DNA of 59,956 nt, the filler included. It is 5 parts of 5 records of this genome, joined end to end, with 100 filler letters (N's around TTAATTAATTAA, not from the genome) between each part and the next. Parts side by side here need not be neighbours in the genome. Positions count along the whole stretch, not along the records: positions 23,036 to 43,951 come from DRR723986_10877; 4 more parts are not named here. The stretch is one strand, 5' to 3'. This document shows positions 14,862-51,574 of the stretch, piece after piece (positions within the stretch are counted from its first letter, which is position 1; each line of letters starts with the position of its first letter). The notes beneath the pieces are model-generated. The model was not told the DNA's origin. It saw only the letters and a program-made list of their open reading frames with translations, and did not search any database. Position numbers and translations under genes: made by a program.

Positions 14862-14873
14862 GGAGCGGCTGGC

Positions 14874-14978: not shown

Positions 14979-15169
14979 GAGTTAAACGGTCAATCGGCTA
15001 TTCAGTAGAAGTTTACACTTGCGGCAAAGAGCAAGTATCGAATATTAAACATCAAAAACTTAACATTCGCTGACCAGAGGCTTCCTTCAATGCTCAGAGT
15101 GTACACTTTCAAATGATCGAACGAAGCAGTTTCGAATTTTGTGGGAGCTGATCTTCATACTATCCAAAG

Positions 15170-15199
15170 ATGCCGGAGTTCAATGAAGAACTCCGGCAT
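15170..15199 (-). terminator. Intrinsic terminator-like hairpin downstream of the RHS gene
   Basis: Perfect 12-bp stem ATGCCGGAGTTC / GAACTCCGGCAT with 6-nt loop, about 30 nt past the RHS stop. Confidence 0.7.
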
Positions 15200-15231
15200 A
15201 AATGTAACCGCTTCGAACCTCAAGAGAGAGT

Positions 15232-21200: not shown

Positions 21201-21567
21201 CGTCACTGCCGGCAAATATCCCTTCCACCTTGTCATCGTGAAAAAGTGTTTGATTGCTGAGAGTAATTGCTGAGGTCCCGCTCAGGCTCCAGCCATATCC
21301 ATACGATCCATTACCGGCCTGGCTGTTGTAGACCAGCGACAGTGAAGGTTGGACATTATTTCGGCCGGCGGGAATGTCGAGTGGGAGGTTAAAAGTAAAC
21401 GCCCCGGTTGGACTGACATCATAGCCGGTAGCCGACTTGCCCACCGCCAGACTGACATTAACAACATCCTGATCTTTGAGAAATGTGCTGCTATATGGCG
21501 GTTGATACGCCTGTATTAACGTCGCCGGCAGCAACAGCGCGGCTAAGACACACAATAAATTATTCAT
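15232..21567 (-). CDS. Secreted RHS/YD-repeat protein (SpvB-like N-terminus, FG-GAP repeats, RHS core) with C-terminal HExxH domain
   Basis: Signal peptide MNNLLCVLAALLLPATLIQA; GAFTFNLPLDIPAGR..PSLSLVYNS (SpvB/TcB-type); GDFNGDGxxD repeats; many YD repeats; core RGYTGHEHL..MNGRLYDP..NPLKYSDPSG; tail with HEYFH...PLEVRAF. Confidence 0.9.
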   Translation of the reverse strand: MNNLLCVLAALLLPATLIQAYQPPYSSTFLKDQDVVNVSLAVGKSATGYDVSPTGAFTFNLPLDIPAGRNNVQPSLSLVYNSQAGNGSYGYGWSLSGTSAITLSNQTLFHDDKVEGIFAGSDERFALDGNRLFALQGVYGANATVYGGEQENYVKITSHGQLGSGPLWFEVETKSGMVLEYGNHTLARTLDGTGQKVLIWSINKATDRFGNYMTYAYDFWNDGEPHLDYVAYTGNSQTGNAPFASIDFIYSTGTRTDENQLYMTREENVMRMDKLLSAIDVKVGSQSYKRYEFLYAFQDNYSYLNEIKESNGTLEYNSTRFSYWDAGHNIENSQTLILAGTYDYLPGDFNGDGVSDLLRAEIYYNHNGFKGYSAANIFLGSGSGNGTFNSSAPLSITLGVILDTKAKFHANNNSNEGMVLCEVGDFNGDGKDDIVTAHGREEKRKVGPFGLQTEKFFKIDEVRFYYSECHGYQTSFAPAQSMIIPADNYVGEDNFFTTGDFNGDNARDLYCAFTDGLKEQSNHIHNDSQPVIYCPRINTAPFSVSGIPNQQGLDWGFNDRVYPLDMDGDGRNDIIQLGAGGTYNDVWEFIFTPGSQQVAAQKFDVLTNLNHTHHFRFGDYNGDGKTDILRSTDRLWWNIWLSNGTNFEHLWQVNPLNLDIVNPSEAAIRVADCNGDGKADILWTNYDINSNSTQWELHYSYGLQLSAESGVLSNTAIRGHGLTRLLDIEGDGATELFSARDIFSYFNITDFNSDDRKPGLMHIASTGLKEIVEVSYASIAGDSPRYLYTPAATHQALPAYPLMELHKPLFVTHVLDEPDGSGVKQSIYENGRLEKHYFYREARFHLEGKGFLGFTAVEFEERYGATMNLGNVSGSDKVFLNHTLYELGPLYIPRVQKFHRSLTSPPVGEAGGITFAPTRTMHGNLYSRETTYLDLPLSADSRTVGQPGYVIEGFNIEGYTVETTYDYSAPNALEYGNPTKITIDRAGGLETEVTALQYGQFGTHIPSSVTRRDVETTRQGQPTLHNIVTYDYDIVTGAVKEEQQHYPLLGGGLSPQVKIEHGYTAMGSLDQSTQTVFNHSAPVRLTEYFYDAEERFLEKQVSPLGYTEEWQYDAISGNVLVHAAVNANNVTTNLYDDLHRLVSNTDAFGNVTTIDRQWSLSQTLPIAQVGAADVLYRVLTSTLSLGKSSVVWYDRLGRERLQEMQGYDVGQKNRNYTHYDHFGKVRQSSTPFEGATEQETVSLGYDELGRVVSQSRYAAGQPPVNTVINNYTMTGNAPFVYTTARTIAVTTERADGVKKTEHRDGSGRVFKVFDHNRIIEYDYTSTGDILSVTVDGQVMSVASYDLQSGLQTALDEVNSGVTTYQYNALGELIDQEDAKGEQVNGFLYDELGRILQKSTPEGVFTYSYFNSGPGIGQIAQMVSPNGVTTSYDYTNNGQISKVTENIAGQTFVAGYDYNSLGRLSQETWHSGTVVNYIYTATGYLDQLVDAGNSTIYFDGHGQNAYGQWTRYTLGNGIISSRTYDSFGRPAVINAAGTFAREYQFDAVTANLVSRSNLLTGVQESFSYDDYDRLEEVRLNATLNLTMKYGSQGIIDFQSGLGVYTYNPVKLHAVRQINFSAPPVQTPEAHNIKYNFNQDPLEITNGSGKQATYSYDGLHRRKLMTLDDGQGNITKRYYGVNAEYEFDPATNVWQMVDYISGGDGLCAMVVTTTGQSPQAYGVYRDYLGSICVVTDMGGGVVADISYDSWGRYRDEQTWQGTPTDQYTPVKPSWLWRGYTGHEHLAEFCLIHMNGRLYDPIVGRMLCPDNYVPDLRTAQSYDRYAYVLNNPLKYSDPSGNVPAFVVPWISMSAGGGMYVGLTAGIGTPGVLSSQVTVGYGIDNSDVFASLGGTVSGLTASVGYGTESGYTAGLNYGVLSFTGSSGIGNNLSSIGVNYSQNGGASANAFGFAYGSGGITFSPSFGYSMTFTYAPAVTHAEKREQMLEEYKDELIAHHGQDVFETTKFRSTRLPRSLRLFGVTTPRGIQETNGIVKSNNQVVAINRRYINRWYRGVGRNVVKGTVFHEYFHAREFHNGVTVDEYYYSGPYRTDPLEVRAFRYELNNFGTGGWFFK

Positions 21568-21607
21568 TGGTTTCCTGGTATTAAAATTTGAGGGTATTGC
21601 TATATTG

Positions 21608-22078
21608 TTACTGCTTGATAAACAGCCAGTTGCTAACAACGTCGTTGTGGGTCAATTGCAAATAGTAACTGCCTGCGGTAAAACCCACTACATCGATTTC
21701 CAGCTTTTGATCAGGTGCATCGTTCTGATATAGCACCTTGCCGCTGACATCTGTCACTCTTAATGAGCCCGTAACATTAACCGCTTCCGAGAACTCGAGC
21801 GTAACACGTTCTGTAGCAGGATTAGGATAGATCTTCACCACGACTTCGCCTAACTTGTCGTGATAAATTCGTACGGCATCCGACGCGGCGCTGCCGTGTT
21901 TTTGCAGGGTGAATAACTTGTCCGACCTGTTGCCGGCATCATCGTAGAAATACTTCAAATAGGGTTGAGCTTCAAGGTCGGCGGAGAGAAACAGCAGCCC
22001 GAAAAAAACCGCTACGGATAGGGGGAACTGGGATATTCTCAAGAGAACTCCTAATGCGCCATCAAAGTTTGAAGGCAA
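21608..22078 (-). CDS. Small T9SS type A sorting (CTD) domain protein with one YD-like motif
   Basis: Hydrophobic signal ending AQ, YFYDDAGNR, then VKIYPNP...GSYYLQL...FIKQ. Start codon uncertain. Confidence 0.8.
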   Translation of the reverse strand: MPSNFDGALGVLLRISQFPLSVAVFFGLLFLSADLEAQPYLKYFYDDAGNRSDKLFTLQKHGSAASDAVRIYHDKLGEVVVKIYPNPATERVTLEFSEAVNVTGSLRVTDVSGKVLYQNDAPDQKLEIDVVGFTAGSYYLQLTHNDVVSNWLFIKQ

Positions 22079-22900
22079 GTGTCAAGTTTTGTTAAGGAGA
22101 ATCAGGCTGTAATGTTGATGGTGCGCAACGGCGTTACATCACGTGTTGCTGTAATCCACGGATGTGCACGAACTAAAAACTGTTAACAAAGGAGCCTCCA
22201 TGTCAATGGGGCTATTTTATCGGCAAACGACCAGACACTTACGACTTATTCCAGCAAAATCAGGGCTTTCGGGAGCAATGTAATTAACAGACTCACCAAA
22301 TAAAACACCTGAGGTTAACAACAAAAAAACGACATCTTATTATTCATCAAATCGGTGTGTATATGGGGATTGACAAGGCATTTGTGGGTTTCAGAATACT
22401 CGTCATATTGACGAACATTCATAGTATAGGGACGATGGTTGTAGCGGTAGCCCCAGTTAGCCTGCCTGGCATCCACATCAATGACACACAACGTCTAAGA
22501 GTGTCGCAGGCTTTCTGTCCAAATTCCAAAACAATCCATCTTTCATTGGTATCGGTTTCACAGCGCTACGAAACTTCAGTCAGCTGTGCCAGTACTGTTT
22601 GGTTTTATCAGAGTGAGCCATCTCTCAATAAATACTGTTTACAGAAATTCCTGCCAGCCAAAATGGTACATCATCGTGCGAATTATTACAACCGTCGATT
22701 CAGATATCGCAGGCTGTCAAGACAGTAAAAATCAGAAACTATTTTCTTCGAGCCTCATCGAGCAGGCAACAACCCACCTCCTTGTTTAATCAAAAATAAT
22801 AGAAGGCCATCTCTGCAAGCTCTGTCGTCGAACTAGTGGGTTTGACTCCGAGTTACGGAGTGAATCTTGCTTTGGTATAAGAACCGATTGACACTTAAAA

Positions 22901-22935
22901 CAAAAAAGCCGCTCCGGAGTATCCGGAGCGGCTGG
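22901..22935 (-). terminator. Intrinsic terminator whose last 11 nt match the other end of the contig
   Basis: AGCCGCTCCGGA-GTA-TCCGGAGCGGCT perfect 12-bp stem with an A-run on the left (U-tract on the minus strand). Confidence 0.75.
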
Positions 22936-23035
22936 NNNNNNNNNNNNNNNNNNNNNNNNNNNNNNNNNNNNNNNNNNNNTTAATTAATTAANNNNNNNNN
23001 NNNNNNNNNNNNNNNNNNNNNNNNNNNNNNNNNNN
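22936..23035. other. Artificial contig linker
   Basis: N-run/TTAATTAATTAA/N-run, 100 nt. Confidence 0.98.
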
Positions 23036-30163: not shown

Positions 30164-30200
30164 CCCGGTCAGCTACATACAATCAGAAACACTAATAAAC

Positions 30201-30242
30201 AACAATGCCGGAAGATGGGCTTATCACCGTTCCGGCATTGTT
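30201..30242. terminator. Hairpin between convergent genes
   Basis: AACAATGCCGGAA...TTCCGGCATTGTT 13-bp inverted repeat. Confidence 0.7.
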
Positions 30243-30276: not shown

Positions 30277-31767
30277 TTACTTAGTCAAACTTCCGACAAT
30301 CTCCGGCTTCTTGCGCTTGTCTTCAAACATTTGTGAACTGTATCCGCGACGAATTGCGGCAATCCAGTTTTTGGCACGCGGTGTTAAACGGAAGTCCTTG
30401 GTCATCATACGACCACGCGCCACCAAAATCCCAAGATCGGCACCTTCGTACAGATAGGAACCTTCGGTAGCGATGCGCAGGAAAAATGCTTCGTTATCCT
30501 TGTCAACTGCACGACGGTGAGTATCCATACGGTTAAAGGCGATATGTCCATTATCATACATATGCCAGATACCGGAACGCGGCGCTTCAACTACCTGCTC
30601 AATTGTATCTTCCGTATGTTTAATGACCAATTGACTCCAGCTATCAACATTATCCTGGCTGGACCAGCGCTTGTTAATATCCTTAATATTCAGGTCGTAA
30701 TCAACGTTCATCCACTCAAGCATATGGAAGAGATACAGTGGAGCGTCGGCAAGTGCAAAAACGGCGTGATTCGTAATAGAACTGGCACCGGTTACACGCG
30801 GGTTAAGCTCACCCAGATAGATATTGCCATTATCCTGATCAATCAGGAAGTCGAGTTCAAAGTAGCCTTTATAACCTTCCTTGCGCAGTTGATCGCCAAA
30901 CTTCTGCGTGTATTTGTTGGCGGCTTTGCGGATTTCCGGGTTAAACGCATCCGGGAAAATTTCGTTGCCACACCAACCACCTTTGTAAGGTGTTAATTCT
31001 TTAAATCCGACGAGTTCGGTCATGAGCGGAGCCACAATCGTGCCGTGACGCGTAACGCAGGCTTCAATTGCCGAGCCGCGGCAGTTGATGCGTTGCATGA
31101 CTTTAACTTCGTCTTCACTTTCAATCTCTTCGGCGTATTTATCATACTCGGCTTCGTTGCTAATGAAGAAAGTGGTGTGCCCAGAGTCCCCAAATGGAGT
31201 TTGAATAACCAGGTCATCGCCGAGTTTAGCAGCAACCTGATTGAGGTGTTCGTAACTTTTCACGGGTGTTAACACGTTCGGCACACAGGGCACGCCGGCC
31301 TTTTCGGCAATGCGGTTTGTGTTAACTTTATTATCCATGCTGTTGCGCATAGAAGCACTGGGGAACATAACTTCGAGGCCCAGTTTACGCGCCAGTTTTT
31401 CGGTCTTTTCATCAAACATCAGGAACATGACTTTGCCGGCATTGCGGCCCTTTTTACGGCTCCTGATAAATTCCTGCACTTCGGGGTGTTGCAACAGGTA
31501 GTTGTTGATGTCTTCGATGCTCTCGAAGTCATCGTGTGGTATGTCATTTTTTGGAGAAAAGACGTTGGGATGCAAGCCGTCAAAACACTCGATATGGCAA
31601 ATAAACTGGAATCCGCGAATCCACTCATCCGCACCCAGCAGATTAAAGTTTGTGGCGCTAATGAAGTAGAGCGGCACTTCATTTTTGTAGAAAAAGCGTC
31701 GAATGTCGGCGACGCCCGACAGTTTATCAGCCAGTTTTTTCAATGTTTTCTTTTGGGCGTCAGCCAT
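30277..31767 (-). CDS. Uncharacterised ATP-grasp ligase
   Basis: DNKVNTNRIAEKAGVP, VIQTPFGDSGHTTFF loop, FELDFLID...GELNPR (ExN metal motif). No biotin-carrier or carboxyltransferase gene nearby. Confidence 0.8.
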   Translation of the reverse strand: MADAQKKTLKKLADKLSGVADIRRFFYKNEVPLYFISATNFNLLGADEWIRGFQFICHIECFDGLHPNVFSPKNDIPHDDFESIEDINNYLLQHPEVQEFIRSRKKGRNAGKVMFLMFDEKTEKLARKLGLEVMFPSASMRNSMDNKVNTNRIAEKAGVPCVPNVLTPVKSYEHLNQVAAKLGDDLVIQTPFGDSGHTTFFISNEAEYDKYAEEIESEDEVKVMQRINCRGSAIEACVTRHGTIVAPLMTELVGFKELTPYKGGWCGNEIFPDAFNPEIRKAANKYTQKFGDQLRKEGYKGYFELDFLIDQDNGNIYLGELNPRVTGASSITNHAVFALADAPLYLFHMLEWMNVDYDLNIKDINKRWSSQDNVDSWSQLVIKHTEDTIEQVVEAPRSGIWHMYDNGHIAFNRMDTHRRAVDKDNEAFFLRIATEGSYLYEGADLGILVARGRMMTKDFRLTPRAKNWIAAIRRGYSSQMFEDKRKKPEIVGSLTK

Positions 31768-31857
31768 GCTGTTTAACTCCTGTTGATATTTGCATTACAG
31801 TGAATGTGTTGATTGTAAAAATGTCAATCGTAGAATCAGAAATCCAGAGTCAGTCAA

Positions 31858-34590
31858 TCAGGGCGTTTTGGACGCAGCTTGTTTAAGCATCGCCCCCATT
31901 GCCGTCGCCGTTTTCTGCCTATTAAGGACAGGCTCACGGAACACGCGCAGCCCCAGATCAGCTCGGAATCCGTGTATTTCAGTTACATCCAGTACCATCA
32001 TAAAAACCAGAATTTCGTTGCTTACAACCTGACCAGGCACAAGCACGGGGAAACCGGGCGGATAGGGAATCACAAAGGAGGAAGCAACCAGTTCGCGGCC
32101 GTCCTGCATTAATCCTGCACAGTCTTCGAGCCGCACATATTCGCAATTGTCCTCATTGTACGCCATAAAAAATGCATGGCGCAAGTTGCCGCCGGGAACG
32201 CCTGGAACAGCGCGGAAGGAAGCATGGAAGTGACTGAAGTCCGGCAGCGGCGGCACGTCTTGTGTTAAGGAGCGAATACGCTCTTCAGCTATTTCGCGCT
32301 CGCGGTAATTGAGAGAGTTAAACTCTTCATCCAGCTGGTCGGCGATCTGCAGCAAGGCATTTGTTAAGTAAGCGACGCTGCCGCGTGTAGTGCCTATATT
32401 CGTCATAAACAGCACTGTATTGCGCGAAGTTTTGTTAATCTGAATACCAAACTTGTCCATCAGGTATTTATTCTTGAAGGTATCACCGTCAACCCCTGTG
32501 CGCCCGATAAACAATGTAATCTTGGTTGGATCCAGCACAAATTCGTCTTTAATCCAGGACTCTTCCATGCGTGTCCAGCCATTCTCAGAGTCGTAATATT
32601 CCTTCAGCCCGCTTTCGCGATATTGTTCAGGAATAAAGTCCTGCACCGTTAACACGTCAAAGTACTTGCTGAGGCGCGGGTTATCGCTGATGCGCGCGCG
32701 CAGAATCATGGCGGCTTCAATACTTTTCTCAACCATCTCATATCCTTCAAACTGCACCTGACGGCGACCGACGTCAAGCGAGGCCAACATCTGGTAGTTT
32801 GGTGAGGTTGAGGTGTGTGTCATATACGCTTCCAGGAAGGTGTTTTCCGACTTTTGGCGGAAGTCCTGATCCCAGATGTGAATCATGGAACCCTGGCGGA
32901 AGCTGCTGAGCGTTTTATGTGTGCTCTGCGTCGCGTAGACCCGAATGCGCACTTTGTCCGGATCAGGTAGCTGCGGAGTTTCGTTCTCACCCAGCTGTTT
33001 AACATGTGCCTGATACTCTTCGCGGTATTCTGGGCTGTTGTAACGCGCATGCAGCTTACGTGCGCAGAACATGCCCGTACGCTGCTTGTAGGTGTAGGTG
33101 AATCCGGCAAAGGCAAACCAGGCTTCATCCCAGAGGAAGATGATGTCCGGCTTTATTGCCAGCACACGTTCCATAAAACGCTCGACGTTGTAGACAAATC
33201 CGTCAAATGTACAGTTGGTTAACAACAGCATTTTGACTCTGTCCAGGCGGCCGGCAGATTTGAGTTCTTCGAGTTTTTCAATGATGGTATCGAGAGGTAC
33301 CGCACCGTACATTGAATATTTTTCGATGGGATATGAATCAAGGTAAACGGGAAAAGCACCGGAAAGCACCAGACCGTAGTGATGCGACTTATGACAGTCG
33401 CGGTCGATCAGTACGACGTCACCGGGCTGTACAACTGCCTGTACAACTATCTTGTTGGCCGTAGAAGTACCGTTGGTCACAAAGAATGTCTGGCGTGCGC
33501 CGTACGCATTGGCGGCCATCTGCTGCGCTTTCTTAAGCGGACCGGTCGGCTGCAAAAGGGAATCAAGCCCCCCCGTTGTTGAAGAAGTCTCGGCCAGAAA
33601 GGTATTACGTCCGTAGAAGTCGCCGAAGTCACGGATCCAGCGCGACTTAAACACGGAGTTTCCACGCGAAATTGGCATGGCGTGGAAAATTCCAGTCGGC
33701 TTTTGGCTGTATTCAACAAGCGCACTGAAGAAAGGCGTGTTAAAACGTTCGCGCACGCCGCGAATGATGCTGAGGTGCAACTCTTGCAGGTCTTCGCGCC
33801 TGTAGTAGACGCGGCGGAATAGTTTAAGCGTACTGTCCTTTAAGTCGCTCAGCGCCGTGTCGGTGACGTAAAAGACGTCCAGCTGCGGGCGGAAGCGGGC
33901 TACCAGGCGTCCCAGGAGAGGGCCGAGTTCGGCCTGCGGCAGCGACTCGGCTTCGATATTGAGCAGATTGCGCAGGTAGGGTTGAATAAAATCTGGAATC
34001 GACTGAATGCGGTAGCGCGGCGCGTAGCGCACAACGACTGCCTGAATGTTGTGGTTAAACAACAAAGCAATCAGCGCATCGGTAAAAGAGTGCTGCACGG
34101 TAACTTCGTAGAGAAACTGCTCACCGGGGTCGCGCAAATCATGGAGTTTTTGACGTAACGCGGCTTCGTCCGCAGCACTCAGGTCTTCAACAAACATGAC
34201 TTCAAAACAGTTGTAGCGGCGGCCTTCATGCGTTTCGGTCAGCTCTTCGTTTGCACTCTGCTCATCGTTCTCACTATTGAGCACCTGGGGCGTAGCGCGA
34301 TAACTTTCACTTACCAACTGGCGCAGTGTTGCCGATATCTGACTGGCAAGAATGGCAAATTCTTTGCGCCGCAGCAGGCGTCCAAAGTTTTCAATGCGAT
34401 TGGGGCCGGGGTAGGCAAAGTATTTTTCGACGGCCGCCAGATGCTTGAGATGTGCCGCCAACTCTTTGCGTTTTTGTTTATCGGCAGCGGAGGTGGTTTT
34501 GGACTGAGCCAGCTCCTCACAGCGGACCTTACATTCGGTCCAAAAGTCAAGGCGTAACTGGCTGATACTGTAATAGGGAGCGCTTGTCAT
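31858..34590 (-). CDS. Large PLP-dependent Orn/Lys/Arg-type decarboxylase (fold type I) with N-terminal extension
   Basis: FFVTNGTSTANK, DRDCHKSHHY, WDEAW, PLP lysine TQSTHKTL, HTSTSPNY, C-terminal PYPPGFPVLVPG. Confidence 0.9.
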   Translation of the reverse strand: MTSAPYYSISQLRLDFWTECKVRCEELAQSKTTSAADKQKRKELAAHLKHLAAVEKYFAYPGPNRIENFGRLLRRKEFAILASQISATLRQLVSESYRATPQVLNSENDEQSANEELTETHEGRRYNCFEVMFVEDLSAADEAALRQKLHDLRDPGEQFLYEVTVQHSFTDALIALLFNHNIQAVVVRYAPRYRIQSIPDFIQPYLRNLLNIEAESLPQAELGPLLGRLVARFRPQLDVFYVTDTALSDLKDSTLKLFRRVYYRREDLQELHLSIIRGVRERFNTPFFSALVEYSQKPTGIFHAMPISRGNSVFKSRWIRDFGDFYGRNTFLAETSSTTGGLDSLLQPTGPLKKAQQMAANAYGARQTFFVTNGTSTANKIVVQAVVQPGDVVLIDRDCHKSHHYGLVLSGAFPVYLDSYPIEKYSMYGAVPLDTIIEKLEELKSAGRLDRVKMLLLTNCTFDGFVYNVERFMERVLAIKPDIIFLWDEAWFAFAGFTYTYKQRTGMFCARKLHARYNSPEYREEYQAHVKQLGENETPQLPDPDKVRIRVYATQSTHKTLSSFRQGSMIHIWDQDFRQKSENTFLEAYMTHTSTSPNYQMLASLDVGRRQVQFEGYEMVEKSIEAAMILRARISDNPRLSKYFDVLTVQDFIPEQYRESGLKEYYDSENGWTRMEESWIKDEFVLDPTKITLFIGRTGVDGDTFKNKYLMDKFGIQINKTSRNTVLFMTNIGTTRGSVAYLTNALLQIADQLDEEFNSLNYREREIAEERIRSLTQDVPPLPDFSHFHASFRAVPGVPGGNLRHAFFMAYNEDNCEYVRLEDCAGLMQDGRELVASSFVIPYPPGFPVLVPGQVVSNEILVFMMVLDVTEIHGFRADLGLRVFREPVLNRQKTATAMGAMLKQAASKTP

Positions 34591-34630
34591 TGTTGGGCAT
34601 CCTTCCTGCTAAGTGGTGAAAAAGGGTAGT

Positions 34631-35068
34631 TCACTGATTCGCATGCAGAGCCAGCCGATTTCCTTCAGTATCAATGAAAATTGCAAAGTGGCCACCTTCG
34701 CCATCAATAAGCGTGGGTGCCAGCACTACGCGTCCCCCACCGGCGGCAACCCTTGCGAGCACGGCATTCAGGTCATTGCCTGCATTGAGGTAAAGAAGTG
34801 GGCCGGTTTCACTGGGCTCACAGCCCGGACCGGTGACGACAGCTCCTGAGCGACCACTGCGCGGCGGGAAGAGTGCCATGGCATATTCCTGGTGATCCAC
34901 CGCTTGTAGTTTTATTTCAAAAATGCTCTCGTAAAAAGCAACGGCACGTGGCAGGTTGAGGGCCGGTATTTCAAACCAGGCGACGTATTCAGATTGCTCG
35001 TTTTTGGTGGACCTGCCACCGCTGGATTTTACTGAGCTGCCCATAGAACCTCTTGAGAATGATTGCAC
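34631..35068 (-). CDS. VOC/glyoxalase family protein
   Basis: VAWFEIPA..RAVAFY, GGRVV, FIDTEGNRLALH. Confidence 0.88.
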   Translation of the reverse strand: MQSFSRGSMGSSVKSSGGRSTKNEQSEYVAWFEIPALNLPRAVAFYESIFEIKLQAVDHQEYAMALFPPRSGRSGAVVTGPGCEPSETGPLLYLNAGNDLNAVLARVAAGGGRVVLAPTLIDGEGGHFAIFIDTEGNRLALHANQ

Positions 35069-35156
35069 AAATACGATGAGCGCGCCTGCAAACTCGATGG
35101 CAGCACACAGGCACGCTTAGAATGGCGAGCGGGACTGCTACTGCAGCCCGCAGCGA

Positions 35157-36080
35157 TTACTTGATCATGTTTGGCGGAAACTTGATGTCGGACTCACGTT
35201 TGTGCAGTTCCGCCAACGCCTCGGTACGCGTGGGTTTGATCAAAGGACCGAGCGACTCAAGATAGGAATGATCTGCGTCATTGGCGTAGATTTTGAAGTC
35301 ACCGATATGATCTCGAAAACTTTTAAGCGGCTGCCCCAGGCGCAGGACGCCCAATTCGCGGCTGCGCCTTACACGCGCCACGTCAACTTCGATCGGGAAT
35401 ATCTCTTCGGTCTCTCCAGCGTTGTGCAAAACACGGCCGTCGGGGCCACAGACAATCGAACGGCCGCTACCACCGGAATCCAGCCCGTTGACATCAAAGA
35501 AGAAACACTGGTTTACCGTAGCCATTGCCCGCGCGATTGAGAGCTCAATTTCGCGATCGATTGTGCCGGTCATGGTTGGGTGCAGAATTACTTCGGCTCC
35601 CATGACGGCCAGTGTTCGAATCGTTTCCGGGAACCACATGTCGTAACAGATGCTGACGCCAAACCTACCGACATTCGGCACGTCGAAGACGCAGAATTCA
35701 CTGCCTGGCTCAACACCGACTTCGTAGGGATAGAACGGAAACATTTTACGGTAGCGCGTAACAACTTCACCGTCCGGATTGATCACCGTCGCGGTATTAT
35801 AGATTTTATCTCCGACTTTTTCAAAGATGGAGCCGGGCAAAAGCCAGATTCGGTGCTGTTTAGCCATCGCACACATGGCTTGTTCAAAATCACCCGGAAT
35901 TTCCTGAGCGTAGTATGTAAGGGGGCCATAGGCACACAGCTCGCTAAAGACCACCATGTCCACCCAAGGGTAGAGGTTCATGGTAATCTGCAGTTTCAGG
36001 CGCATCATTTCCACGTTGGAATACGTGGCGGCAGTCTTCATTTGGACTCCGGCAATTGCAAAGGGTTTGCTAGAATTCAT
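35157..36080 (-). CDS. Carbon-nitrogen hydrolase (nitrilase superfamily amidase)
   Basis: Catalytic triad E (VVFSEL), K (YRKMFP), C (ICYDMWFPE). ATGA overlap with the upstream aminotransferase. Confidence 0.9.
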   Translation of the reverse strand: MNSSKPFAIAGVQMKTAATYSNVEMMRLKLQITMNLYPWVDMVVFSELCAYGPLTYYAQEIPGDFEQAMCAMAKQHRIWLLPGSIFEKVGDKIYNTATVINPDGEVVTRYRKMFPFYPYEVGVEPGSEFCVFDVPNVGRFGVSICYDMWFPETIRTLAVMGAEVILHPTMTGTIDREIELSIARAMATVNQCFFFDVNGLDSGGSGRSIVCGPDGRVLHNAGETEEIFPIEVDVARVRRSRELGVLRLGQPLKSFRDHIGDFKIYANDADHSYLESLGPLIKPTRTEALAELHKRESDIKFPPNMIK

Positions 36081-37372
36081 GATGCTTTGGAAACCTCCTC
36101 TTCCAGGATGTCAAGCCCCTGATGCAGCAGTCTATCGTCAATTACCAGGGGTGTCAGTATGCGAATAACGTTTTTGAACGTCCCGGCACTGAGCAGAATT
36201 AATCCGCCTTCCGCGCAGGCACGCACAATCGCAGCGCACATTTCAGTCGCAGGGCGGCGGGGATCGCCGTCCTCCACAAATTCCATACCGATCATGGAGC
36301 CTAAGCCACGCACGTCACCAATCTTGGGGTTGCCGGCCTGCATTTTCTGCAGGCGCTGCATTATTGTGTCTCCAAGCTCACGGCTGCGTTGATTCAGATT
36401 CTGCTTGCGCATCAGCTCTATTGTTGCCAGCGCGGCGGCACAGCAGACGGGGCTGCCGATATAGGTTCCACCGATGGTTCCGGGGGCAGCGGCGTCCATG
36501 ACTTCCGCACGTCCGAGCACAGCTGCAATCGGCAGACCCGAGCCCAAGGATTTTGCATAGGTGCTGATATCCGGCGTTACGCCATATTCCTGCCAGGCGG
36601 CCCAGTTTCCGGTACGGCCAAAACCACTCTGGACTTCGTCCATGATCAGCATAATACCATGCTCGTCACAGAATTTCCGCAGGCCTTCAAGATATGCTTG
36701 AGGTATGGGATAAAAACCACCTTCGCCCTGTACCGGCTCCAAAATCACGGCCGCCAGGTTCTCCGGATCTACGATGTTGTAAGCGCTTTCACGCAGGCGC
36801 TTCAACTCAAAGTCAATATACTCAGCTTCACTACGCTCGCCGCCGTAGCGGTAGTAATTCGGGAACGGCAAGCGGTACACTTCGGGAGCAAAAGGACCGC
36901 AATTGAGCTTGTAGCCCACCTTACTGGTCAGAGTCATGGCCATCATCGTACGGCCGTGATACGCGCCTGTGTAACACAGAACAGCCTGGCGTTTAGTAGC
37001 CTGGCGGGCTATCTTAATTGCATTTTCAACGGCTTCGGCTCCCGTACTGACCAGCATTGCCTTGGTGTGTTCGCCATGCGGCAATATTTCTGCCAGCTGC
37101 TCACATAACTCGACGTAAGGTTCATAGGTGACAACATTAAAACTTGTGTGCAGGTATTTTCCAGCCTGCTCACGAACAGCTTCCACAACTTCCGGCGGGC
37201 AATGCCCGGCATTAACAACACCGATCCCACCAGCAAAATCGATCCACTCGCGACCGTCTTCATCGATGATCGTTGCCCCATGTGCTTCTTTAACCGTAGC
37301 GGTGTTAAACACACCTACGCCATTAGCAACGGCATTGCGCCTGCGATTAAACAACTCTTCTGATCTTGACAT
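36077..37372 (-). CDS. Class III aminotransferase, 4-aminobutyrate/5-aminovalerate type (GabT/PuuE/DavT-like)
   Basis: DFAGGIGVVNAGH, TGAEAVENAIK, YHGRT, EPVQGEGG, DEVQSGFGRTG, AKSLGSG, GGTY. Confidence 0.9.
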   Translation of the reverse strand: MSRSEELFNRRRNAVANGVGVFNTATVKEAHGATIIDEDGREWIDFAGGIGVVNAGHCPPEVVEAVREQAGKYLHTSFNVVTYEPYVELCEQLAEILPHGEHTKAMLVSTGAEAVENAIKIARQATKRQAVLCYTGAYHGRTMMAMTLTSKVGYKLNCGPFAPEVYRLPFPNYYRYGGERSEAEYIDFELKRLRESAYNIVDPENLAAVILEPVQGEGGFYPIPQAYLEGLRKFCDEHGIMLIMDEVQSGFGRTGNWAAWQEYGVTPDISTYAKSLGSGLPIAAVLGRAEVMDAAAPGTIGGTYIGSPVCCAAALATIELMRKQNLNQRSRELGDTIMQRLQKMQAGNPKIGDVRGLGSMIGMEFVEDGDPRRPATEMCAAIVRACAEGGLILLSAGTFKNVIRILTPLVIDDRLLHQGLDILEEEVSKAS

Positions 37373-37874
37373 CCGTTGTTCACTTTCTGATTTCCTCCCG
37401 CAGACAAAATCCGCAAAGAGTCGATTAATTGAAATGTAGAGGCGGGCAGTGCGGGTTAACGGCACCGGATTTGAGACAGTTTTGTGGGCTATTGACGGGC
37501 ATTATACATAACCATGTGTGCAAATTTCCGGGCCGGCCACAAAAGTTAGGTCACGAAACACCCGCTTCTTTATTGCCGCACAGTTTTATCTGAGCAGCTA
37601 ACAACCTGTGTCTTCAGCGCGTTCAGCACAATGCCATTCACCGTCCCCACCAAACGAATAGAAACGAACGCTACAACTGCCAGTCGGATGACTTCACATC
37701 ATCCAACTACACTTTTCAGCGTCAGCCGGTTTTTAACATTTAGTGATATTACAATGGGTCGCGCTCTCAATGTGCAGTGCCTTTTTGTAGCGCAGCCGGC
37801 CGGCCTAACAACAAGCGGAACAAACTAAGAGACGGACCATTCCAAGACTGCAAACACCGTGCAACAATCACCCA

Positions 37875-37930
37875 CAATATCCACCGCATAATATGCATCA
37901 CATAATAAGCACCGCACAATAAGCACCGCA
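37875..37930. repeat. Four imperfect tandem 14-bp repeats in a divergent intergenic region
   Basis: caatatccaccgca / taatatgcatcaca / taataagcaccgca / caataagcaccgca. Confidence 0.7.
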
Positions 37931-38057
37931 TACTCGCCGGCAGCTCCAGTGCATAACATTTGCCAAAGCCGACCAGCGCCAACCTACAAAATGTGTGAGT
38001 GCTTTCCAGGCATACAAATTGTGATCAAATATCTGGCAGGACTTATCAATTATTGTG

Positions 38058-38065
38058 TAATTTTG
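38058..38065 (+). promoter_or_regulatory. Candidate Bacteroidota -7 promoter element upstream of rimK
   Basis: TAATTTTG matches TAnnTTTG about 90 nt before the rimK start. Confidence 0.4.
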
Positions 38066-38154
38066 GCCCGTCGGTGAAAAGAAGCATGTCCGATGCTACG
38101 AACGCCACACAAACTGGATAGAACAAGCTCCCATGTAATTACACGGAACGTACT

Positions 38155-39063
38155 GTGAAAATAGCCATCCTCTCACGCAATGAAAAACTATATTCGACGC
38201 GACGTCTCATTGAGGCGGGCACAGAACGCGGACATGACATTAACCTATATAATCACCTTGATTGCAATCTGGTGATCCAACAAAAAACACCGACAGTTTT
38301 GTATAGAGGCCAGGACGTCACAAATGTGGATGCAATTATTCCACGAATCGGTGCTTCGGTAACATTTTATGGTGCGGCGGTCGTGCGCCAGTTTGAAATG
38401 GCACGTGTATTTAGTGCGGTGGAATCTCAGGCGCTACTGCGCTCGCGCGATAAACTACGCAGTTTACAAATCCTTTCGCGCGCGGGGCTGGGCCTGCCAA
38501 AAACCGTGTTTACAAATTATACGAAAAATGTCGACGACCTTCTGGATGAGGTCGGTGGCGGAGCCGTAGTTATTAAACTCCTGGAAGGCACGCAGGGCCT
38601 GGGTGTAGTTTTGGCAGAAAACCGCAAGGCTGCCAAATCCGTCATCGAAGCGTTTCACGGCTTAAAAGCACGAATAATTGTGCAGGAGTTTATCAAGGAA
38701 GCCGGTGGAGCCGATGTCCGTGCTTTTGTCGTCGGCGGAAAAGTCGTCGGCGCAATGAAACGCCAGGCGGCCGAAGGTGAATTTCGTTCCAATCTGCACC
38801 GCGGTGGCACTTCACAAGTGATTAAACTGAGCCGAACCGAAAACTCAACAGCACTCAAAGCCGCCAAGGCAATGGGCCTGGGCGTGGCCGGTGTTGACAT
38901 GTTGCGTTCATCGCGTGGCCCTCTGATTCTTGAAGTCAACTCATCCCCAGGCCTGGAAGGCATTGAAAAAGCTACGGGCACCGATATTGCCGGAACCATT
39001 ATTGAGTACCTGGAAAATAATGCCGGTAAAAAACGCGTGCAGAAGGACAAAGTTAACGCTTAA
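38155..39063 (+). CDS. rimK: RimK alpha-L-glutamate ligase
   Basis: [58 protein letters not shown]. Confidence 0.95.
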
Positions 39064-39138
39064 ACTCACTTTGAAGAATTCGTGGCAATTCGGCTAGCTT
39101 TCCTGGGGCTACTACGGACGTAACAATGAGCGATACGC

Positions 39139-40086
39139 ATGCAACACTTTGAACTGAACGGCATGAGAGTGCACAAGGGCGATAAAGTACAACTCAACCT
39201 TGGAATTGCACGCCTGCCTTCGCGGACACCAATTGAAATGCCGATCTTCGTACATTGCGGCATGCAAGATGGGCCGACTCTTCTGTTGCTGGCCGGCATG
39301 CATGGTGACGAGATCAACGGCATAGAAACTCTACGCCGCATGATTAAACACGATCTGTGCTCACCGCAATGCGGCACTATCGTTTGCATTCCAATTGTTA
39401 ACGTGTACGGCTTCATTGCGTTTTCGCGCGAAGTGCCCGATGGCAAAGATGTTAACAGGTCGTTTCCAGGCTCCGAAAAGGGCTCACTGGCCAGTCGGAT
39501 TGCACACACGCTGGTAGATAAAATCCTACCGAGCATCGACCTGGGCATTGACTTCCACACCGGTGGTGCCAGCCGCACAAACTACCCGCAAATTCGCTGT
39601 GTGATGGATGACGCGAGCAACTCAAAATTGGCCCATGCCTTTCAACCGCCATTTATTATTAACTCGCCTCTGCGGCCCAAGTCCCTGAGGCAAACAGCGG
39701 CAAAAATGGGCAAACCGATCATCGTTTTTGAAGGTGGTGAATCACTGCGCCTGGACGAAACTGCAATTGCCGAAGGAATTGCCGGAGCGCGGCGCGTAAT
39801 GGCACATCTGGGAATGATAGACCACGCAGATGAATCGGCACACACCACCACCGTCATCAGCCAATCCAAATGGCTGCGCGCCCGCAACGCAGGACTGTTT
39901 CACTCAAAGGTTGCATCGGGCGAAGAGGTTAAACAGCGGCAGGTTGTCGGTGAGATTACAGACCCATTTGGCGATTTCACCATTAAACTTCGCAGCCCCA
40001 TAAATGGCTATGTTATTGGCCTGACAAACAACCCGGTCGTGCACCAGGGTGATGCTTTGATCCATATCGGATCACGCATGGATTAG
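39139..40086 (+). CDS. Succinylglutamate desuccinylase/aspartoacylase (M14-like) family deacylase
   Basis: HGDEING, DVNRSFPG, DFHTG, FEGGE and a C-terminal barrel-sandwich tail. Confidence 0.9.
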   Translation: MQHFELNGMRVHKGDKVQLNLGIARLPSRTPIEMPIFVHCGMQDGPTLLLLAGMHGDEINGIETLRRMIKHDLCSPQCGTIVCIPIVNVYGFIAFSREVPDGKDVNRSFPGSEKGSLASRIAHTLVDKILPSIDLGIDFHTGGASRTNYPQIRCVMDDASNSKLAHAFQPPFIINSPLRPKSLRQTAAKMGKPIIVFEGGESLRLDETAIAEGIAGARRVMAHLGMIDHADESAHTTTVISQSKWLRARNAGLFHSKVASGEEVKQRQVVGEITDPFGDFTIKLRSPINGYVIGLTNNPVVHQGDALIHIGSRMD

Positions 40087-40106
40087 CACGCCACTAACAA
40101 CATTAC

Positions 40107-40604
40107 TTAGGTTTTGCGCGCACGCACGGTAGAACTGTCAGCAGCTTCTGCAGTTTGGGCAGCGCCGTGTGACAGGTTAACTTTAGCAACATCAACTACA
40201 AAGCGGCGGCGCAGCAGGCGTTTGCCGAGCAGCACCGGATAGGTCATTTTTTCGCGATCCGACAGAGTAAATTCCGTTTTCCATTCTTTGCCAAACAACT
40301 TAACATACGTTGTAATCACATAACGATATTCGGTCGAACCAAAGGAGCTTTTAATCTTGCGCTCCTTAAAATTCTTAGTCGAATACTCACGCCCATTATA
40401 CTCGTCATGTGAAGGGTCGAGCAAGGTAAAAACTATCCAGGACTCACCGTTAACTTCACGCACACGCACACGCCGGCAGTGAATGGCAGAGGTGTCGGCG
40501 CCGGTATCGATTTTACAGGGCAAGCCAAACAGTTCGAGTTCGGGCAGATCCACCACATCGCGATGCCCGATAACGAGCTTTTCTTTTGGTTTCTTCTTAC
40601 TCAA
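40107..40604 (-). CDS. RimK-associated retropepsin-like putative protease
   Basis: KIDTGADTSAIH, IKSSFG, FTLSDREKMTYPVLLGKR. Confidence 0.88.
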   Translation of the reverse strand: MSKKKPKEKLVIGHRDVVDLPELELFGLPCKIDTGADTSAIHCRRVRVREVNGESWIVFTLLDPSHDEYNGREYSTKNFKERKIKSSFGSTEYRYVITTYVKLFGKEWKTEFTLSDREKMTYPVLLGKRLLRRRFVVDVAKVNLSHGAAQTAEAADSSTVRARKT

Positions 40605-41160: not shown

Positions 41161-43951
41161 ATGAGATTCACATTCTACACAACAGCTACTATAATGAGAT
41201 GTACAAGACCTAAACACACCTGGCGCGGCGCTGTCCGAGCCCTTTTTGTCCTACTATTTTGCACCTTGACGCACCTGCCGCTGTTAATGCAGGCACAGTC
41301 CTTTCCCGGACGCACGGTTTATGATTTGACTCCCAAGCAGCACACAGTACTAACCGCCAGTGCCAGCAATGGAGGTTTTCTCTACCTTGCCGGCCGCGGA
41401 TCTGATTTTTGCGGTCCAAACAATTTTGTGGCGCGCATGGATAAAACCGGCCAAGAGGCCGGCAACACTTTTTCTGCGGGCTTAACAATTGGGATACCGA
41501 GTCACATACGAATTTACGGCGAAGACCTATATGTAGCCACAATTCGCGATTTCCCGATGCTTGATGGCAGCCCCAAATTCACCGAGATTATTAAATTGGG
41601 ACCAGCAGCCGAAGAACTACAATGGCGGACCCCAATTGAAGAATACCGAATCGACCAGGCACCACTTGAATTAATAGAGCTTAATACAGACTTCCTGCTC
41701 GTGTACGTGCGTGCAGCCGAAGGTGGAATAACCGTCCTTAATTTGATTAACAAAAACGATGGCAGTATCCGCGCGACACGTGAATTTATCACGGGAGTCG
41801 ATGGCGGCCTGCACCCAATCGTAGTTAATGAAACCGTAAACATTGCAGTCAACCTTGGTGACCGGATAGTGGTTTTGGACGGGACGGATTTAACTTTGAA
41901 AACCCTGCTCTGGACGGCCGACGCACAGGATATAGAGGGTGTTGACAGCTTTCTTTCCCTCATCCCATTAGAGAATGAGAATGTATTTTTTGTTTCACGT
42001 GGTGGAGTGACGCATGAACTAGACGGTGTCAGCGGCGAACTAACGAGAAGCGTTCCAATGCAGAAGCCCTACGCCAGCGCAGAGCCGGCAGCAATACTGG
42101 GCGATTGGCCTTCCGTCTATTATGCCTGGGCTCCTATAAAAGAGTCAGACCATACTTTTCGTGTATCCAAAGTATCTTTGGGCGGCGGTCACTTTTGGAC
42201 ATCTACACGTCCAACAGGTGGCCCAACAAGTGGCTCTCCAGAAAAATACCGCACCCTGATTCGAGATCTGAATGGTGATATTGCCGTAGCAACCGTTGTA
42301 AACGGTTCTGAGGTTCGCGCCATGAGATTCACAGATTTCAACGGCCTCGACATCACGTATGGCAAACTTAGCGGGCAAGGAAATTCAATGGGCTTGCCAC
42401 ACATTAACCTCGTCGATGATGAGCTTGTCTTCTCTGCTACTGACGGCGGTGAACTCGGCAATGGAACATTTAACTTGATCACTTCTGCGCGGCGGAAGAT
42501 GAATGGAATTATTATTGGCACTCCGTTTACATTCGGCGGCAATTATAAAGTTAGTGCCTATATTAAAAAGATGCTACCTTTTGGCCAAACCTATGTAGAG
42601 TTAATTCAGGCGGGTGCTAATGTAGAAGTCATTATGCATGGAGTGGATAAAACAGGCGACATCTGGCGTACAGTGATGCCGAAGTTCGGCAATATAGACG
42701 AAGCCGTCGCAATCGCAGTCAGTGAAGACAATAATATATGTGTGCTTACACGCTCGGCAGCCCTAAACCTGATTGAGGAAGAAGGGAAGCAGGCGCGTTT
42801 CCAAACAACGTACGACATTGGCAAGCTGCACTTTTTCTATTTAAACAGTAGTGGACAGATACTGAAGGCGCATACCGAGGAATTTCAAACACAAGGGGCG
42901 GCACGCGTTGAGTTAACAAGTGCCGGCTCTGACTTTTTCGCAACAATCAGAGGAAGGTTTGAACAGGAAGGGTATTACAATCTGATAAAGTTCAACAGTG
43001 AGTCTGTTAGTCGCATGCCGATGTCTCTGGGCGATCCGGAGATTCACTTTGGTCCGCGCATGCTTCCGGTCGGTCAAAACCTGTATGCCGCCGGTGCAGC
43101 GAACGTAGACGGCACCTGCCACATCAACGCTATAAACACAGATGTCCTCACCCAGGGGACAATTCTGAAGTTGATGGATTGTGATGACATTTATTACTCG
43201 GTAAACAACGGGAACAGGGCGGCATTTTCTGGATGGTGGAAAGAGCCGGGGACATCATACGCCACTGGTCAGGTGTTCACTGTTAATCTTGAACGTGGTG
43301 AGCTGCTGTGGCGGCAAGAGCTGGAACAGTTCGGTTATGTGCGAATGTTAAAATTCGACGAAACAAACAACAAAGTCTATGCGCTGGGAATCCACGACTA
43401 CCAAACGGACGGTGGTTTCAATTATGTGTTAACATGTCTGAGTGCTGATGACGGAACAATCGAATGGACGGCAACGCGCGACACCTCGCAGTCGGAACGG
43501 TTTGCACCAATGGATTTTGAGATATTTCCAGACCGCATTATCGTGGCGGGTTGGTATTACGATCTACCAACCGATGAGCGCAAACGCTCCTATGTAATGG
43601 CGATTGACAAACAAGGTCAAGAAATTGAATTTAAGATTCTGCCTGACGAGCAAACTGTAGAGCTGTTCGTGACACGCAGAGGGGATTTACTGCACTCGAC
43701 GCGCTGGCGGGCCAATCAGTCAGATTGTTTTATTAGCGGACGCGCACGTGTTACTGATATCGCGGTCAGCGTTGCCGAGCCTGAATTGCAGGTGGCGGGA
43801 GCATTAAACATTTTCCCCAATCCTGCCGATGGTGCCTGTTCTCTTGTTTTCCCCGGAGTGTCGGGCGCGAAGTATTCGATCGTCGTGCGTGACCTGCTCG
43901 GCCGCCGAGTCTTTGAGACTGCAGCCAGACTGCAAGACGCCGAGGCTGGAT
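41161..43951 (+). CDS. Large secreted T9SS cargo protein (probable beta-propeller), cut by contig end
   Basis: Signal peptide ending MQAQ, beta-rich body with PQQ-like GELLWRQ / DGTIEW motifs, CTD starting LNIFPNPA...DLLGR. Confidence 0.75.
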
Positions 43952-44051
43952 NNNNNNNNNNNNNNNNNNNNNNNNNNNNNNNNNNNNNNNNNNNNTTAAT
44001 TAATTAANNNNNNNNNNNNNNNNNNNNNNNNNNNNNNNNNNNNNNNNNNNN
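43952..44051. other. Artificial contig linker
   Basis: N-run/TTAATTAATTAA/N-run, 100 nt. Confidence 0.98.

Positions 44052-48909: not shown

Positions 48910-51574
<2,665 letters not shown>

Follow-up and report, generated by a model that had tools for sequence, protein, structure and literature searches.

A five-gene operon joining a long-form PLP decarboxylase, an ATP-grasp ligase-like protein and a Nit-type amidase in a Cytophagales-like contig

Gene content and layout of the operon

We analysed a stretch of 59,956 nucleotides, called the window here, which joins five contigs end to end, and examined in it an operon of five minus-strand genes at 30277-37372. The operon encodes a GabT-like aminotransferase, a carbon-nitrogen (CN) hydrolase of the Nit type, a VOC protein, a long-form pyridoxal-phosphate (PLP) decarboxylase and an ATP-grasp ligase-like protein (Table 1). 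One contig (23036-43951, record DRR723986_10877) encloses all of it, with the caveat that the window itself is a joined set. Both the open reading frame (ORF) calls and direct reading of the sequence agreed with the layout given in a first-pass annotation of this DNA, namely five co-oriented genes that overlap or lie less than 100 nt apart. The start codon of the CN-hydrolase gene overlaps the aminotransferase stop codon in an ATGA at 36077-36080, and the other intergenic gaps are, in operon order, 88, 40 and 90 nt. The ATG assigned to the aminotransferase was preceded by a GGGAGGAAA-type ribosome-binding site and agreed with the end coordinate of the same annotation. Directly past the stop codon of the ATP-grasp gene sits a terminator-like hairpin, which the pattern scan, limited to loops of up to 8 nt, did not list. 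At the other end, promoter and regulatory sites presumably lie in the intergenic region; sigma-70-like matches in a promoter scan were no commoner than in shuffled sequence.

Table 1 Positions of the operon genes and associated features (window coordinates unless loci are named)
Feature	Position	Strand	Basis or remark
Aminotransferase, class III, GabT-like	36077..37372	-	ATG at 37372; longest ORF (GTG) reaches 37465
Carbon-nitrogen hydrolase (Nit-type amidase), 307 aa	35157..36080	-	PF00795 and Glu-Lys-Cys triad
VOC protein (glyoxalase / bleomycin-resistance fold), 145 aa	34631..35068	-	Pfam Glyoxalase
Long-form (four-domain) Orn/Lys/Arg-family PLP decarboxylase, 910 aa	31858..34590	-	Full-length match to Rv2531c
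ATP-grasp ligase-like protein, 496 aa	30277..31767	-	NF005096/PRK06524
Terminator-like hairpin, 13-bp stem, 16-nt loop, T-rich tail	30194..30242 (about)	-	Sequence read directly
Intergenic region, 782 nt, operon to divergent rimK	37373..38154	.	Sequence read
Urea-transporter/M23 fusion loci	L047, L052, L053, L056-L058, L061, L063, L065, L067		Upstream of VOC-decarboxylase-ligase

The families of all five proteins were confirmed with Pfam and NCBIfam, in agreement with the GabT-like, nitrilase-family and VOC assignments made in the first pass. The aminotransferase matched Pfam Aminotran_3 (410.7 bits), and its nearest solved relative was E. coli GabT (1SF2, E 8.6e-123), the top 12 chains all being 4-aminobutyrate (GABA) aminotransferases. 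Its scores against two NCBIfam models were 499.2 bits for TIGR00700 GABAtrnsam (cut-off 506.65) and 516.5 bits for PRK06918 (cut-off 676). The CN-hydrolase matched Pfam CN_hydrolase at 112.6 bits, and the Glu-Lys-Cys triad claimed for it earlier is visible in the translation as E47 in FSELCAY, K112 in YRKMFPF and C145 in SICYDMW. This protein reached no NCBIfam equivalog cut-off. Its best match was AguB, and an identity as N-carbamoylputrescine amidase was not supported, since TIGR03381 scored 83.6 bits against a cut-off of 410.25 and aligned over residues 67-181 only. Its nearest solved chains were PH0642, the P. abyssi nitrilase, mouse Nit2 and yeast Nit3. The VOC protein passed the Pfam Glyoxalase cut-off (26.6 bits, cut-off 20.6) and showed weak matches in the PDB to Rv0577 and to one uncharacterised protein.

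The decarboxylase and the ATP-grasp protein

The decarboxylase matched Pfam OKR_DC_1 (266.8 bits), so its earlier description as an enzyme of the Orn/Lys/Arg type stood as to the Pfam family. The diamine or polyamine product that the description carried is probably wrong, given a full-length match to Rv2531c of M. tuberculosis and the residues shared with it. The PDB entries 9N0N/9N0O hold the Rv2531c chain, solved by cryoEM (PMC12329521). Residues 10-896 of the window protein aligned without interruption to residues 23-908 of the 947 in that chain (E 3e-239, 799.6 bits), and the alignment to 9N0N showed the long-form architecture, in which one more domain, at the N terminus, precedes the response-regulator-like, catalytic and C-terminal ones. 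K559 is the PLP lysine. Seven active-site residues were checked; H400, K401, K559, R565, T595 and N719 are identical to H405, K406, K570, R576, T606 and N731 of Rv2531c, and the sole change is K706 at the position of R718. The same six residues were invariant in 69/69 aligned decarboxylases, and the R718 position was Lys in 67 and Arg in 2, those with Lys including decarboxylases whose genomes are free of the ligase. The decarboxylase match in one proteobacterial genome (G572:C1:195294-198026) contains one in-frame TGA.

A function was assigned to the long-form subfamily only in 2026, for the stand-alone mycobacterial enzyme (PMC13506015). According to the main text of that paper, Rv2531c converts L-glutamate to GABA, gave negative results when tested on Lys, Orn and Arg, and requires Mg2+, and most of the flux that enters the GABA shunt passes through it; on glutamate its K0.5 was 509 mM (Hill number 4), and its kcat/K0.5 was 136 M-1 s-1 (PMC13506015). 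By homology, the window decarboxylase is probably an Rv2531c-type L-glutamate decarboxylase. An assignment as a Lys, Orn or Arg decarboxylase was rejected on the Rv2531c match and on family scores: the protein scored at best 219.8 bits against LdcC (cut-off 968), 176.5 against AdiA (cut-off 1167) and 159.9 against SpeF (cut-off 1310); over the curated NCBIfam families for these three substrates the scores were 160-220 bits, against cut-offs of 794-1310.

The ATP-grasp protein matched NF005096 over residues 6-486 (789.5 bits, cut-off 684), a family that NCBI names 'biotin carboxylase' and curates at equivalog level. The protein had been called an orphan in the first pass, which proved wrong: it belongs to a large named family, with NF005096-like proteins counted at 2387 representatives of 50%-identity clusters (E<=1e-3). 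Conservation in the family is unusually high: the best 120 matches in a 90%-identity clustered collection were 76-82% identical to the window protein. Membership in NF005096 says nothing on function, because no tested member was found in print. In the ESM Atlas the protein matched its own family alone, with names assigned automatically.

The AlphaFold model of the ATP-grasp protein (pLDDT 90.8) showed a three-domain ATP-grasp fold. In Foldseek the top matches were biotin carboxylases, including the E. coli enzyme (E 1e-19, TM 0.57-0.61, identity 12-15%). An all-against-all structure aligner placed PurK, PylC, PurT, BesA, PurD, a Streptomyces peptide ligase, BacD, a PGM1-type ligase and carboxylases together at Z 20-24, with PurK highest at 24.1, BesA at 22.1 and carboxylase domains at about 20-22. 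The fold did not name a class of substrate.

The residues that bind Mg and ATP are kept in the family (K147, D306, E320, N322 and R324). In a profile alignment to pyruvate carboxylase and methylcrotonyl-CoA carboxylase chains, NF005096 proteins read R-i-t-G-a-t (TGA(S/T); ELNPRVTGAS in the window) where the carboxylases read R-I-Q-V-E-H, and because of this replacement the carboxylase Glu is missing. We take the Glu of the QVEH motif to be the catalytic base, E296 of E. coli biotin carboxylase. An invariant Gln also stands in the family where the aligned carboxylases have the Lys of the (M/I)LKA(S/V) strand. The accC families scored far below their cut-offs (TIGR00514, 29.9 bits vs 626.5; PRK08591, 34.6 vs 597). 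No biotin-carrier or carboxyltransferase family was found among the 20 scanned ORFs of the operon contig, and no biotin carboxyl carrier protein (BCCP) or carboxyltransferase among the neighbour clusters scanned, which included the eight most recurrent ones within 10 kb on either side in 80 related loci. On the absent Glu, the accC scores and the lack of a carrier or carboxyltransferase neighbour, a true biotin carboxylase was rejected, consistent with the earlier view of an ATP-grasp protein that has no biotin-carrier partner. The name 'biotin carboxylase' is unsupported, because the Glu is missing and neither a biotin carrier nor a carboxyltransferase lies nearby.

Genomic linkage and surroundings

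The conservation of the operon was assessed in 80 related loci gathered via the ATP-grasp protein, and where a smaller denominator is given it counts the loci with enough flanking DNA. A decarboxylase gene lay within 2 kb upstream of the ligase gene on the same strand in 54/63 loci with at least 3 kb upstream. Where at least 6.5 kb upstream was present, the VOC gene was found in 37/53 loci, the CN-hydrolase gene in 32/53 and the aminotransferase gene in 29/53, and all five window genes occurred together in 24 of the 53. The five-gene arrangement is not due to chance, because these 24 loci share all five genes and the genes flanking the operon in the window recurred in 0/80.

Two further genes recur downstream of the ligase in related loci. 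A C45-family N-terminal nucleophile (Ntn) hydrolase/acyltransferase gene lay within 1.5 kb in 44/68 loci, and a gene for a succinic-semialdehyde dehydrogenase (SSADH)-like protein lay within 3 kb in 36 of 64 informative loci; the best family of the latter was the NADP-dependent succinic-semialdehyde dehydrogenase NF006915 (515 bits, cut-off 730). The five genes, the C45 gene and the dehydrogenase gene were all present in 11 of the 45 loci with both flanks. An APC amino-acid permease gene stood between decarboxylase and ligase in 8/80 loci.

The pairing was also followed in genome samples. Among 301 evenly sampled Bacteroidota genomes, the ligase was found in 5 and the decarboxylase in 5, the identical five genomes. 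Among 401 Pseudomonadota genomes, the ligase was found in 11 and the decarboxylase in 15. In all 11 ligase-bearing genomes, ligase, decarboxylase and C45 genes formed one cluster, which held the CN-hydrolase too in 8/11; the remaining four genomes had the decarboxylase alone, and the ligase family was not found in the two of them in which it was sought again. In the Actinomycetota (n = 281) the decarboxylase occurred in 3 genomes, two of which also had the ligase, unlinked and in one closed contig 838 kb apart. Of five genomes with a ligase locus free of the decarboxylase, 4 encoded it elsewhere, and in the fifth it was not found. Decarboxylase genes beside genes for the ATP-grasp ligase and amide hydrolases were observed in at least 5 phyla, namely Bacteroidota, Pseudomonadota, Gemmatimonadota, Deinococcota and Rhodothermota. 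The linkage persisted for pairs at 39-44% identity to those of the window (L100, L101). Over 64 loci the identities of ligase and decarboxylase to the window copies co-varied (r = 0.89), and the ligase was the better conserved of the two in 63. In several phyla, homologues of the ATP-grasp gene are thus strongly tied to genes for the long decarboxylase and for amidases, a linkage on which the first-pass proposal depended.

An amide hydrolase accompanies the ligase in nearly every case, as a neighbour or as a fusion partner, and unrelated hydrolases take this place. Besides the C45 genes, a beta-lactamase-family gene was directly downstream of the ligase in 2/2 actinobacterial genomes, and three fusion proteins of 921-980 aa (P0271, P0272 and P0273) join an ATP-grasp domain to a beta-lactamase-family domain in two cases and to an amidase-signature domain in one; in the two beta-lactamase-family fusions the hydrolase domain is N-terminal in one and C-terminal in the other. 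Because three unrelated hydrolase folds share this position, the ligase and the hydrolase appear to act on the same amide-containing compound. When the C45 protein was compared by sequence with solved structures, nothing matched at E<=0.01. In four close relatives an ORF of 232-233 aa with no Pfam family stands in the place of C45 after the ligase (L003 11555-12256; likewise L009). It has only a five-residue stretch, DGMNE, in common with C45, and by its sequence it could be an Ntn hydrolase that has diverged or decayed.

Other genes were seen beside the decarboxylase-ligase pair in particular lineages. A membrane fusion of a urea-transporter family domain and an M23 peptidase adjoined the pair in 11/80 loci, which were Chitinophagales/Sphingobacteriales-like (Table 1), and also stood in two distant proteobacterial clusters without a CN-hydrolase (L100 3579-5021 and L101 14989-16509). 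Such a fusion could be a sign that the substrate or the product is a small neutral amide. In one proteobacterial genome (G572, L093 1707-8000), genes for a cyanophycin synthetase, an amidohydrolase, an M24 (creatinase/prolidase-type) peptidase and an AstE-like protein were directly upstream of the module, with GabT-like and dehydrogenase genes downstream; for this genome only, the context suggests a link to the turnover of a nitrogen store.

Divergent from the operon in the window, 38155-40604 encodes a RimK glutamate ligase (380 bits, cut-off 331), a deacylase of the AstE/aspartoacylase family and a RimB-like retropepsin protease, products that all deal with glutamate tails or acyl-glutamates. 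A tie between the operon and these neighbours was rejected as a conserved context, since this neighbourhood was found in 0/80 related loci.

The five contigs of the window are joined by four spacers (8119-8218, 14762-14861, 22936-23035 and 43952-44051), each made up of 44 N, TTAATTAATTAA and 44 N, and some ORFs are cut by them, for example an OppD-like ORF at 14285-14809 and a 948-aa ORF at 41161-44007. Contigs 14862-22935 and 23036-43951 have a GC content of 0.44-0.53, and their Bacteroidota markers are a type IX secretion system (T9SS) sorting domain together with RimK and operon genes of Cytophagales-like type. GC content is 0.52-0.60 in the remaining three, which look proteobacterial, with FixJ/CckA-like two-component genes and a set including RbfA, TruB and DapB, and the assembly may be a mixed bin. 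The operon contig is Cytophagales-like: its RimK shares 70-72% identity with the RimK found in genomes of Roseivirgaceae, Cyclobacteriaceae and Ekhidna, and the operon proteins were up to 82% identical to those in the same groups. Eight window proteins had no exact match in a collection of 15 billion proteins. A tRNA scan of the whole window found zero tRNAs, and an Rfam search over 23036-43951 found no family at E<=0.1. On a separate contig, the minus strand of 15232-22078 encodes a 2135-aa RHS/YD-repeat protein beside a 156-aa ORF with a T9SS type-A sorting domain. A 517-aa protein at 49438-50991 scored 584.9 bits against TmpA, 2-trimethylaminoethylphosphonate dioxygenase (cut-off 400); it has about 150 extra N-terminal residues and is encoded on a different contig of higher GC.

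A putative GABA route with an amide module, and its alternatives

Taken as a whole package, the cluster is best explained, with a probability of roughly 0.5, as a route from glutamate through GABA to succinic semialdehyde combined with a conserved module that makes and cleaves an amide. The sequence itself shows the operon, the protein families, the linkage and that the carboxylase Glu has been lost. Its backbone is taken to be a GABA shunt and not a polyamine route, because it combines an Rv2531c-type decarboxylase with a GabT-like aminotransferase and, in relatives, an SSADH-like gene. The decarboxylase would convert glutamate to GABA, as its characterised homologue Rv2531c does. The NF005096 ATP-grasp protein may be a carboxylate-amine ligase that uses ATP to form an amide containing GABA or a glutamyl unit, and the Nit-type amidase, like the C45 Ntn hydrolase in most relatives, may reopen such amide bonds; the substrates of ligase, amidase and C45 protein are putative and drawn from genomic context. 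Free GABA would then be converted to succinic semialdehyde by the GabT-like aminotransferase, and the SSADH-like dehydrogenase in the clusters of relatives would oxidise this to succinate, two steps suggested by strong homology. The APC permease genes of 8/80 loci also count in favour of this GABA drain, and the close coupling of the ligase with the decarboxylase and with hydrolases favours the package as a whole. The chain proposed in the first pass (make an amine, ligate, hydrolyse, transaminate) keeps its general logic as the best reading and gains a dehydrogenase and a C45 protein in relatives; what it probably loses is the polyamine as its amine.

Several observations weigh against the GABA route with an amide module. 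The glutamate assignment leans on one characterised homologue, Rv2531c, which has a K0.5 of 509 mM, and in the lineage of that homologue the decarboxylase and ligase genes were unlinked in the two actinobacterial genomes checked. On these three grounds the ligase-linked decarboxylases may prefer another substrate. In a quick, unfinished, midpoint-rooted decarboxylase tree that was built without Rv2531c, four ligase-free proteobacterial decarboxylases grouped as a single clade with a long branch (support 100), which sat inside the ligase-linked ones (support 98), and a functional shift is therefore possible. The fold of the ATP-grasp protein cannot pick between carboxylation and amide ligation, because carboxylating enzymes (PurK, biotin carboxylase and urea carboxylase) tie at Z 20-24 with amide ligases (PylC, BesA and BacD). 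The aminotransferase falls about 7 bits under the TIGR00700 cut-off. A tblastn search of the window found no match to the C45 and dehydrogenase genes, and the window copy is a shortened version of the cluster that is without both. Finally, making and then hydrolysing one amide is a cycle without obvious net gain.

A bolder form of the same proposal, which we regard as speculative and rather doubtful, is an undescribed cycle in which the ATP-grasp protein, a hydrolase that changes between lineages and the long-form decarboxylase make and cleave a 4-aminobutanoyl (GABA) or gamma-glutamyl amide conjugate, as a bacterial counterpart of the amine buffering by carnosine or by Ebony/Tan. Stand-alone enzymes like Rv2531c would then be descendants that lost their partners, and their high K0.5 would reflect an ancestral conjugate substrate. 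The cycle would perhaps serve as an osmolyte or nitrogen store.

The alternative that survives best, itself unlikely, puts the ligase first: the ATP-grasp protein would join glutamate by its gamma-carboxylate to an amine, or would make another glutamyl derivative, the conjugate would be the true substrate of the ligase-linked long-form decarboxylases, and the hydrolases would release the products, so that decarboxylation of free glutamate by partner-less Rv2531c-like enzymes would be a derived or side activity. The poor kinetics of Rv2531c on glutamate (K0.5 509 mM, kcat/K0.5 136 M-1 s-1) suit this order of events, as does the greater conservation of the ligase than of the decarboxylase in 63/64 loci. 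BesA, a fold neighbour at Z 22.1, is a gamma-glutamyl ligase. The quick tree also fits, as linkage spans the deepest decarboxylase split and the enzymes free of the ligase fall together in a nested clade on a long branch, but Rv2531c is absent from that tree. Ligase-linked decarboxylases, however, keep the residues for recognising glutamate, including the Arg proposed for the gamma-carboxylate, and this conserved Arg weighs against the alternative because a gamma-amide substrate would need no such Arg; clustered GabT and SSADH genes likewise suit free GABA.

It is less probable still that the cluster is a catabolic module for amide nitrogen or glutamine (or one for acid stress), in which hydrolases would free glutamate and ammonia from glutamine or from other glutamyl amides and peptides, the decarboxylase and GabT would consume the glutamate, and the ATP-grasp protein would have a side role such as ATP-dependent activation or re-amidation. 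The omega-amidases Nit2 and Nit3 are among the nearest solved relatives of the amidase, each cluster has at least 2 amide hydrolases, the APC permease occurs in 8/80 loci, and in one proteobacterial lineage cyanophycin synthetase, amidohydrolase and M24 peptidase genes lie directly upstream. Such a module would nevertheless leave without a role the ligase, whose gene is the best conserved and the most closely linked of all; the hydrolase-ligase fusions point to a common substrate, and no hydrolase passes the cut-off of a glutaminase family.

The acyl-polyamine pathway of the first-pass annotation, a Puu-like scheme with other folds in which Orn, Lys or Arg would yield a diamine or agmatine to be acylated, deacylated and transaminated, is now improbable. 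It draws on the Orn/Lys/Arg names of the decarboxylase in Pfam and NCBIfam, on the sub-threshold best match of the CN-hydrolase to N-carbamoylputrescine amidase, and on the urea-transporter-family gene beside 11/80 clusters and 2 proteobacterial ones, which could hint at a guanidino substrate. The decarboxylase, however, scored 160-220 bits against the Lys, Arg and Orn families (cut-offs 794-1310) and matched Rv2531c, an enzyme negative on all three amino acids, over its full length; the aminotransferase is closest to GABA and not putrescine aminotransferases, and no agmatinase or agmatine deiminase was found among the recurrent neighbours. Least credible of all is a genuine bicarbonate-activating carboxylase, biotin-dependent or PurK-like, as the NCBI name has it: the best Foldseek matches (E 1e-19, TM 0.57-0.61), the PurK score (Z 24.1), the invariant Arg of the NPR motif and an amidase-signature fusion partner with the fold of allophanate hydrolase speak for it, but the absent QVEH Glu, the invariant Gln in place of Lys, accC-type scores of about 30 bits against cut-offs >600, the 12-15% identity and the lack of a BCCP or carboxyltransferase in the operon contig or among recurrent neighbours speak against it.

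Several known systems resemble the proposed GABA route with its amide module in part. In the E. coli Puu pathway, PuuA, PuuB, PuuC, PuuD and PuuE ligate an amine to an acid with ATP, oxidise it, hydrolyse the amide, transaminate GABA and oxidise succinic semialdehyde. The likeness is one of logic only, with PuuE-type chains among the best matches of the aminotransferase, whereas the amine here would most likely be GABA from glutamate and not putrescine; no PuuA (glutamine-synthetase fold), PuuB oxidase or PuuD (class-I amidotransferase type) was found, whether in the operon or among the recurrent neighbour clusters scanned. Synthetases paired with amidases are known from glutathionylspermidine synthetase/amidase, from carnosine synthase and carnosinase, and from insect Ebony and the C45-family protein Tan, which frees beta-alanine from beta-alanyl amines. 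These couples share an ATP-dependent amide ligase that is paired or fused with a hydrolase of the same bond, and Tan comes near to the proposed release of GABA. In contrast to them, the hydrolase fold here varies by lineage between C45, beta-lactamase-family and amidase-signature. In methanofuran biosynthesis, the PLP decarboxylase MfnA makes an amine that the ATP-grasp enzyme MfnD acylates with an amino acid; MfnA differs as a group-II tyrosine decarboxylase and MfnD as a smaller ATP-grasp protein, in a pathway with no known hydrolases or GABA-shunt enzymes. With AccC and PurK the ATP-grasp protein shares the three-domain fold, the E-x-N-x-R Mg/phosphate motif and the ATP-binding Lys, but it differs in the missing catalytic Glu, the 12-15% identity, the lack of a carrier or carboxyltransferase and its other genomic partners.

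Also among the closest systems is the mycobacterial GABA shunt with Rv2531c, which has the same four-domain decarboxylase architecture, conserved active-site residues, and GabT-like and (in relatives of the window cluster) SSADH-like partners. Unlike Rv2531c, the decarboxylase here is in an operon with an ATP-grasp protein, a Nit-type amidase and a VOC protein, joined in relatives by C45. The main texts of the two papers on Rv2531c contain neither 'ATP-grasp' nor 'biotin carboxylase' nor 'neighbo(u)r', and 'operon' appears only in the title of one reference (PMC13506015, PMC12329521). Full-text literature searches, which covered papers outside subscription and the main texts of the two Rv2531c papers, found none that ties NF005096 or any ATP-grasp protein to the long-form decarboxylase, and none that describes a characterised pathway with this combination of genes, as the first pass had also held. 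In a bioRxiv paper on acid tolerance in Castellaniella, a term search found neither ATP-grasp nor biotin carboxylase, and neither nitrilase nor C45.

The backbone of the cluster is the known GABA shunt with a newly described long-form decarboxylase, and the cluster is an ordinary metabolic one and not a new type of system. What is new is a long-form decarboxylase beside an ATP-grasp ligase and amide hydrolases, compared with the stand-alone mycobacterial enzyme. Once known, the reaction of the ATP-grasp protein would correct the annotation of the whole, probably mis-named NF005096 family, would test free glutamate as the native substrate of the decarboxylase subfamily, and would probably reveal a new metabolite derived from GABA or glutamate.

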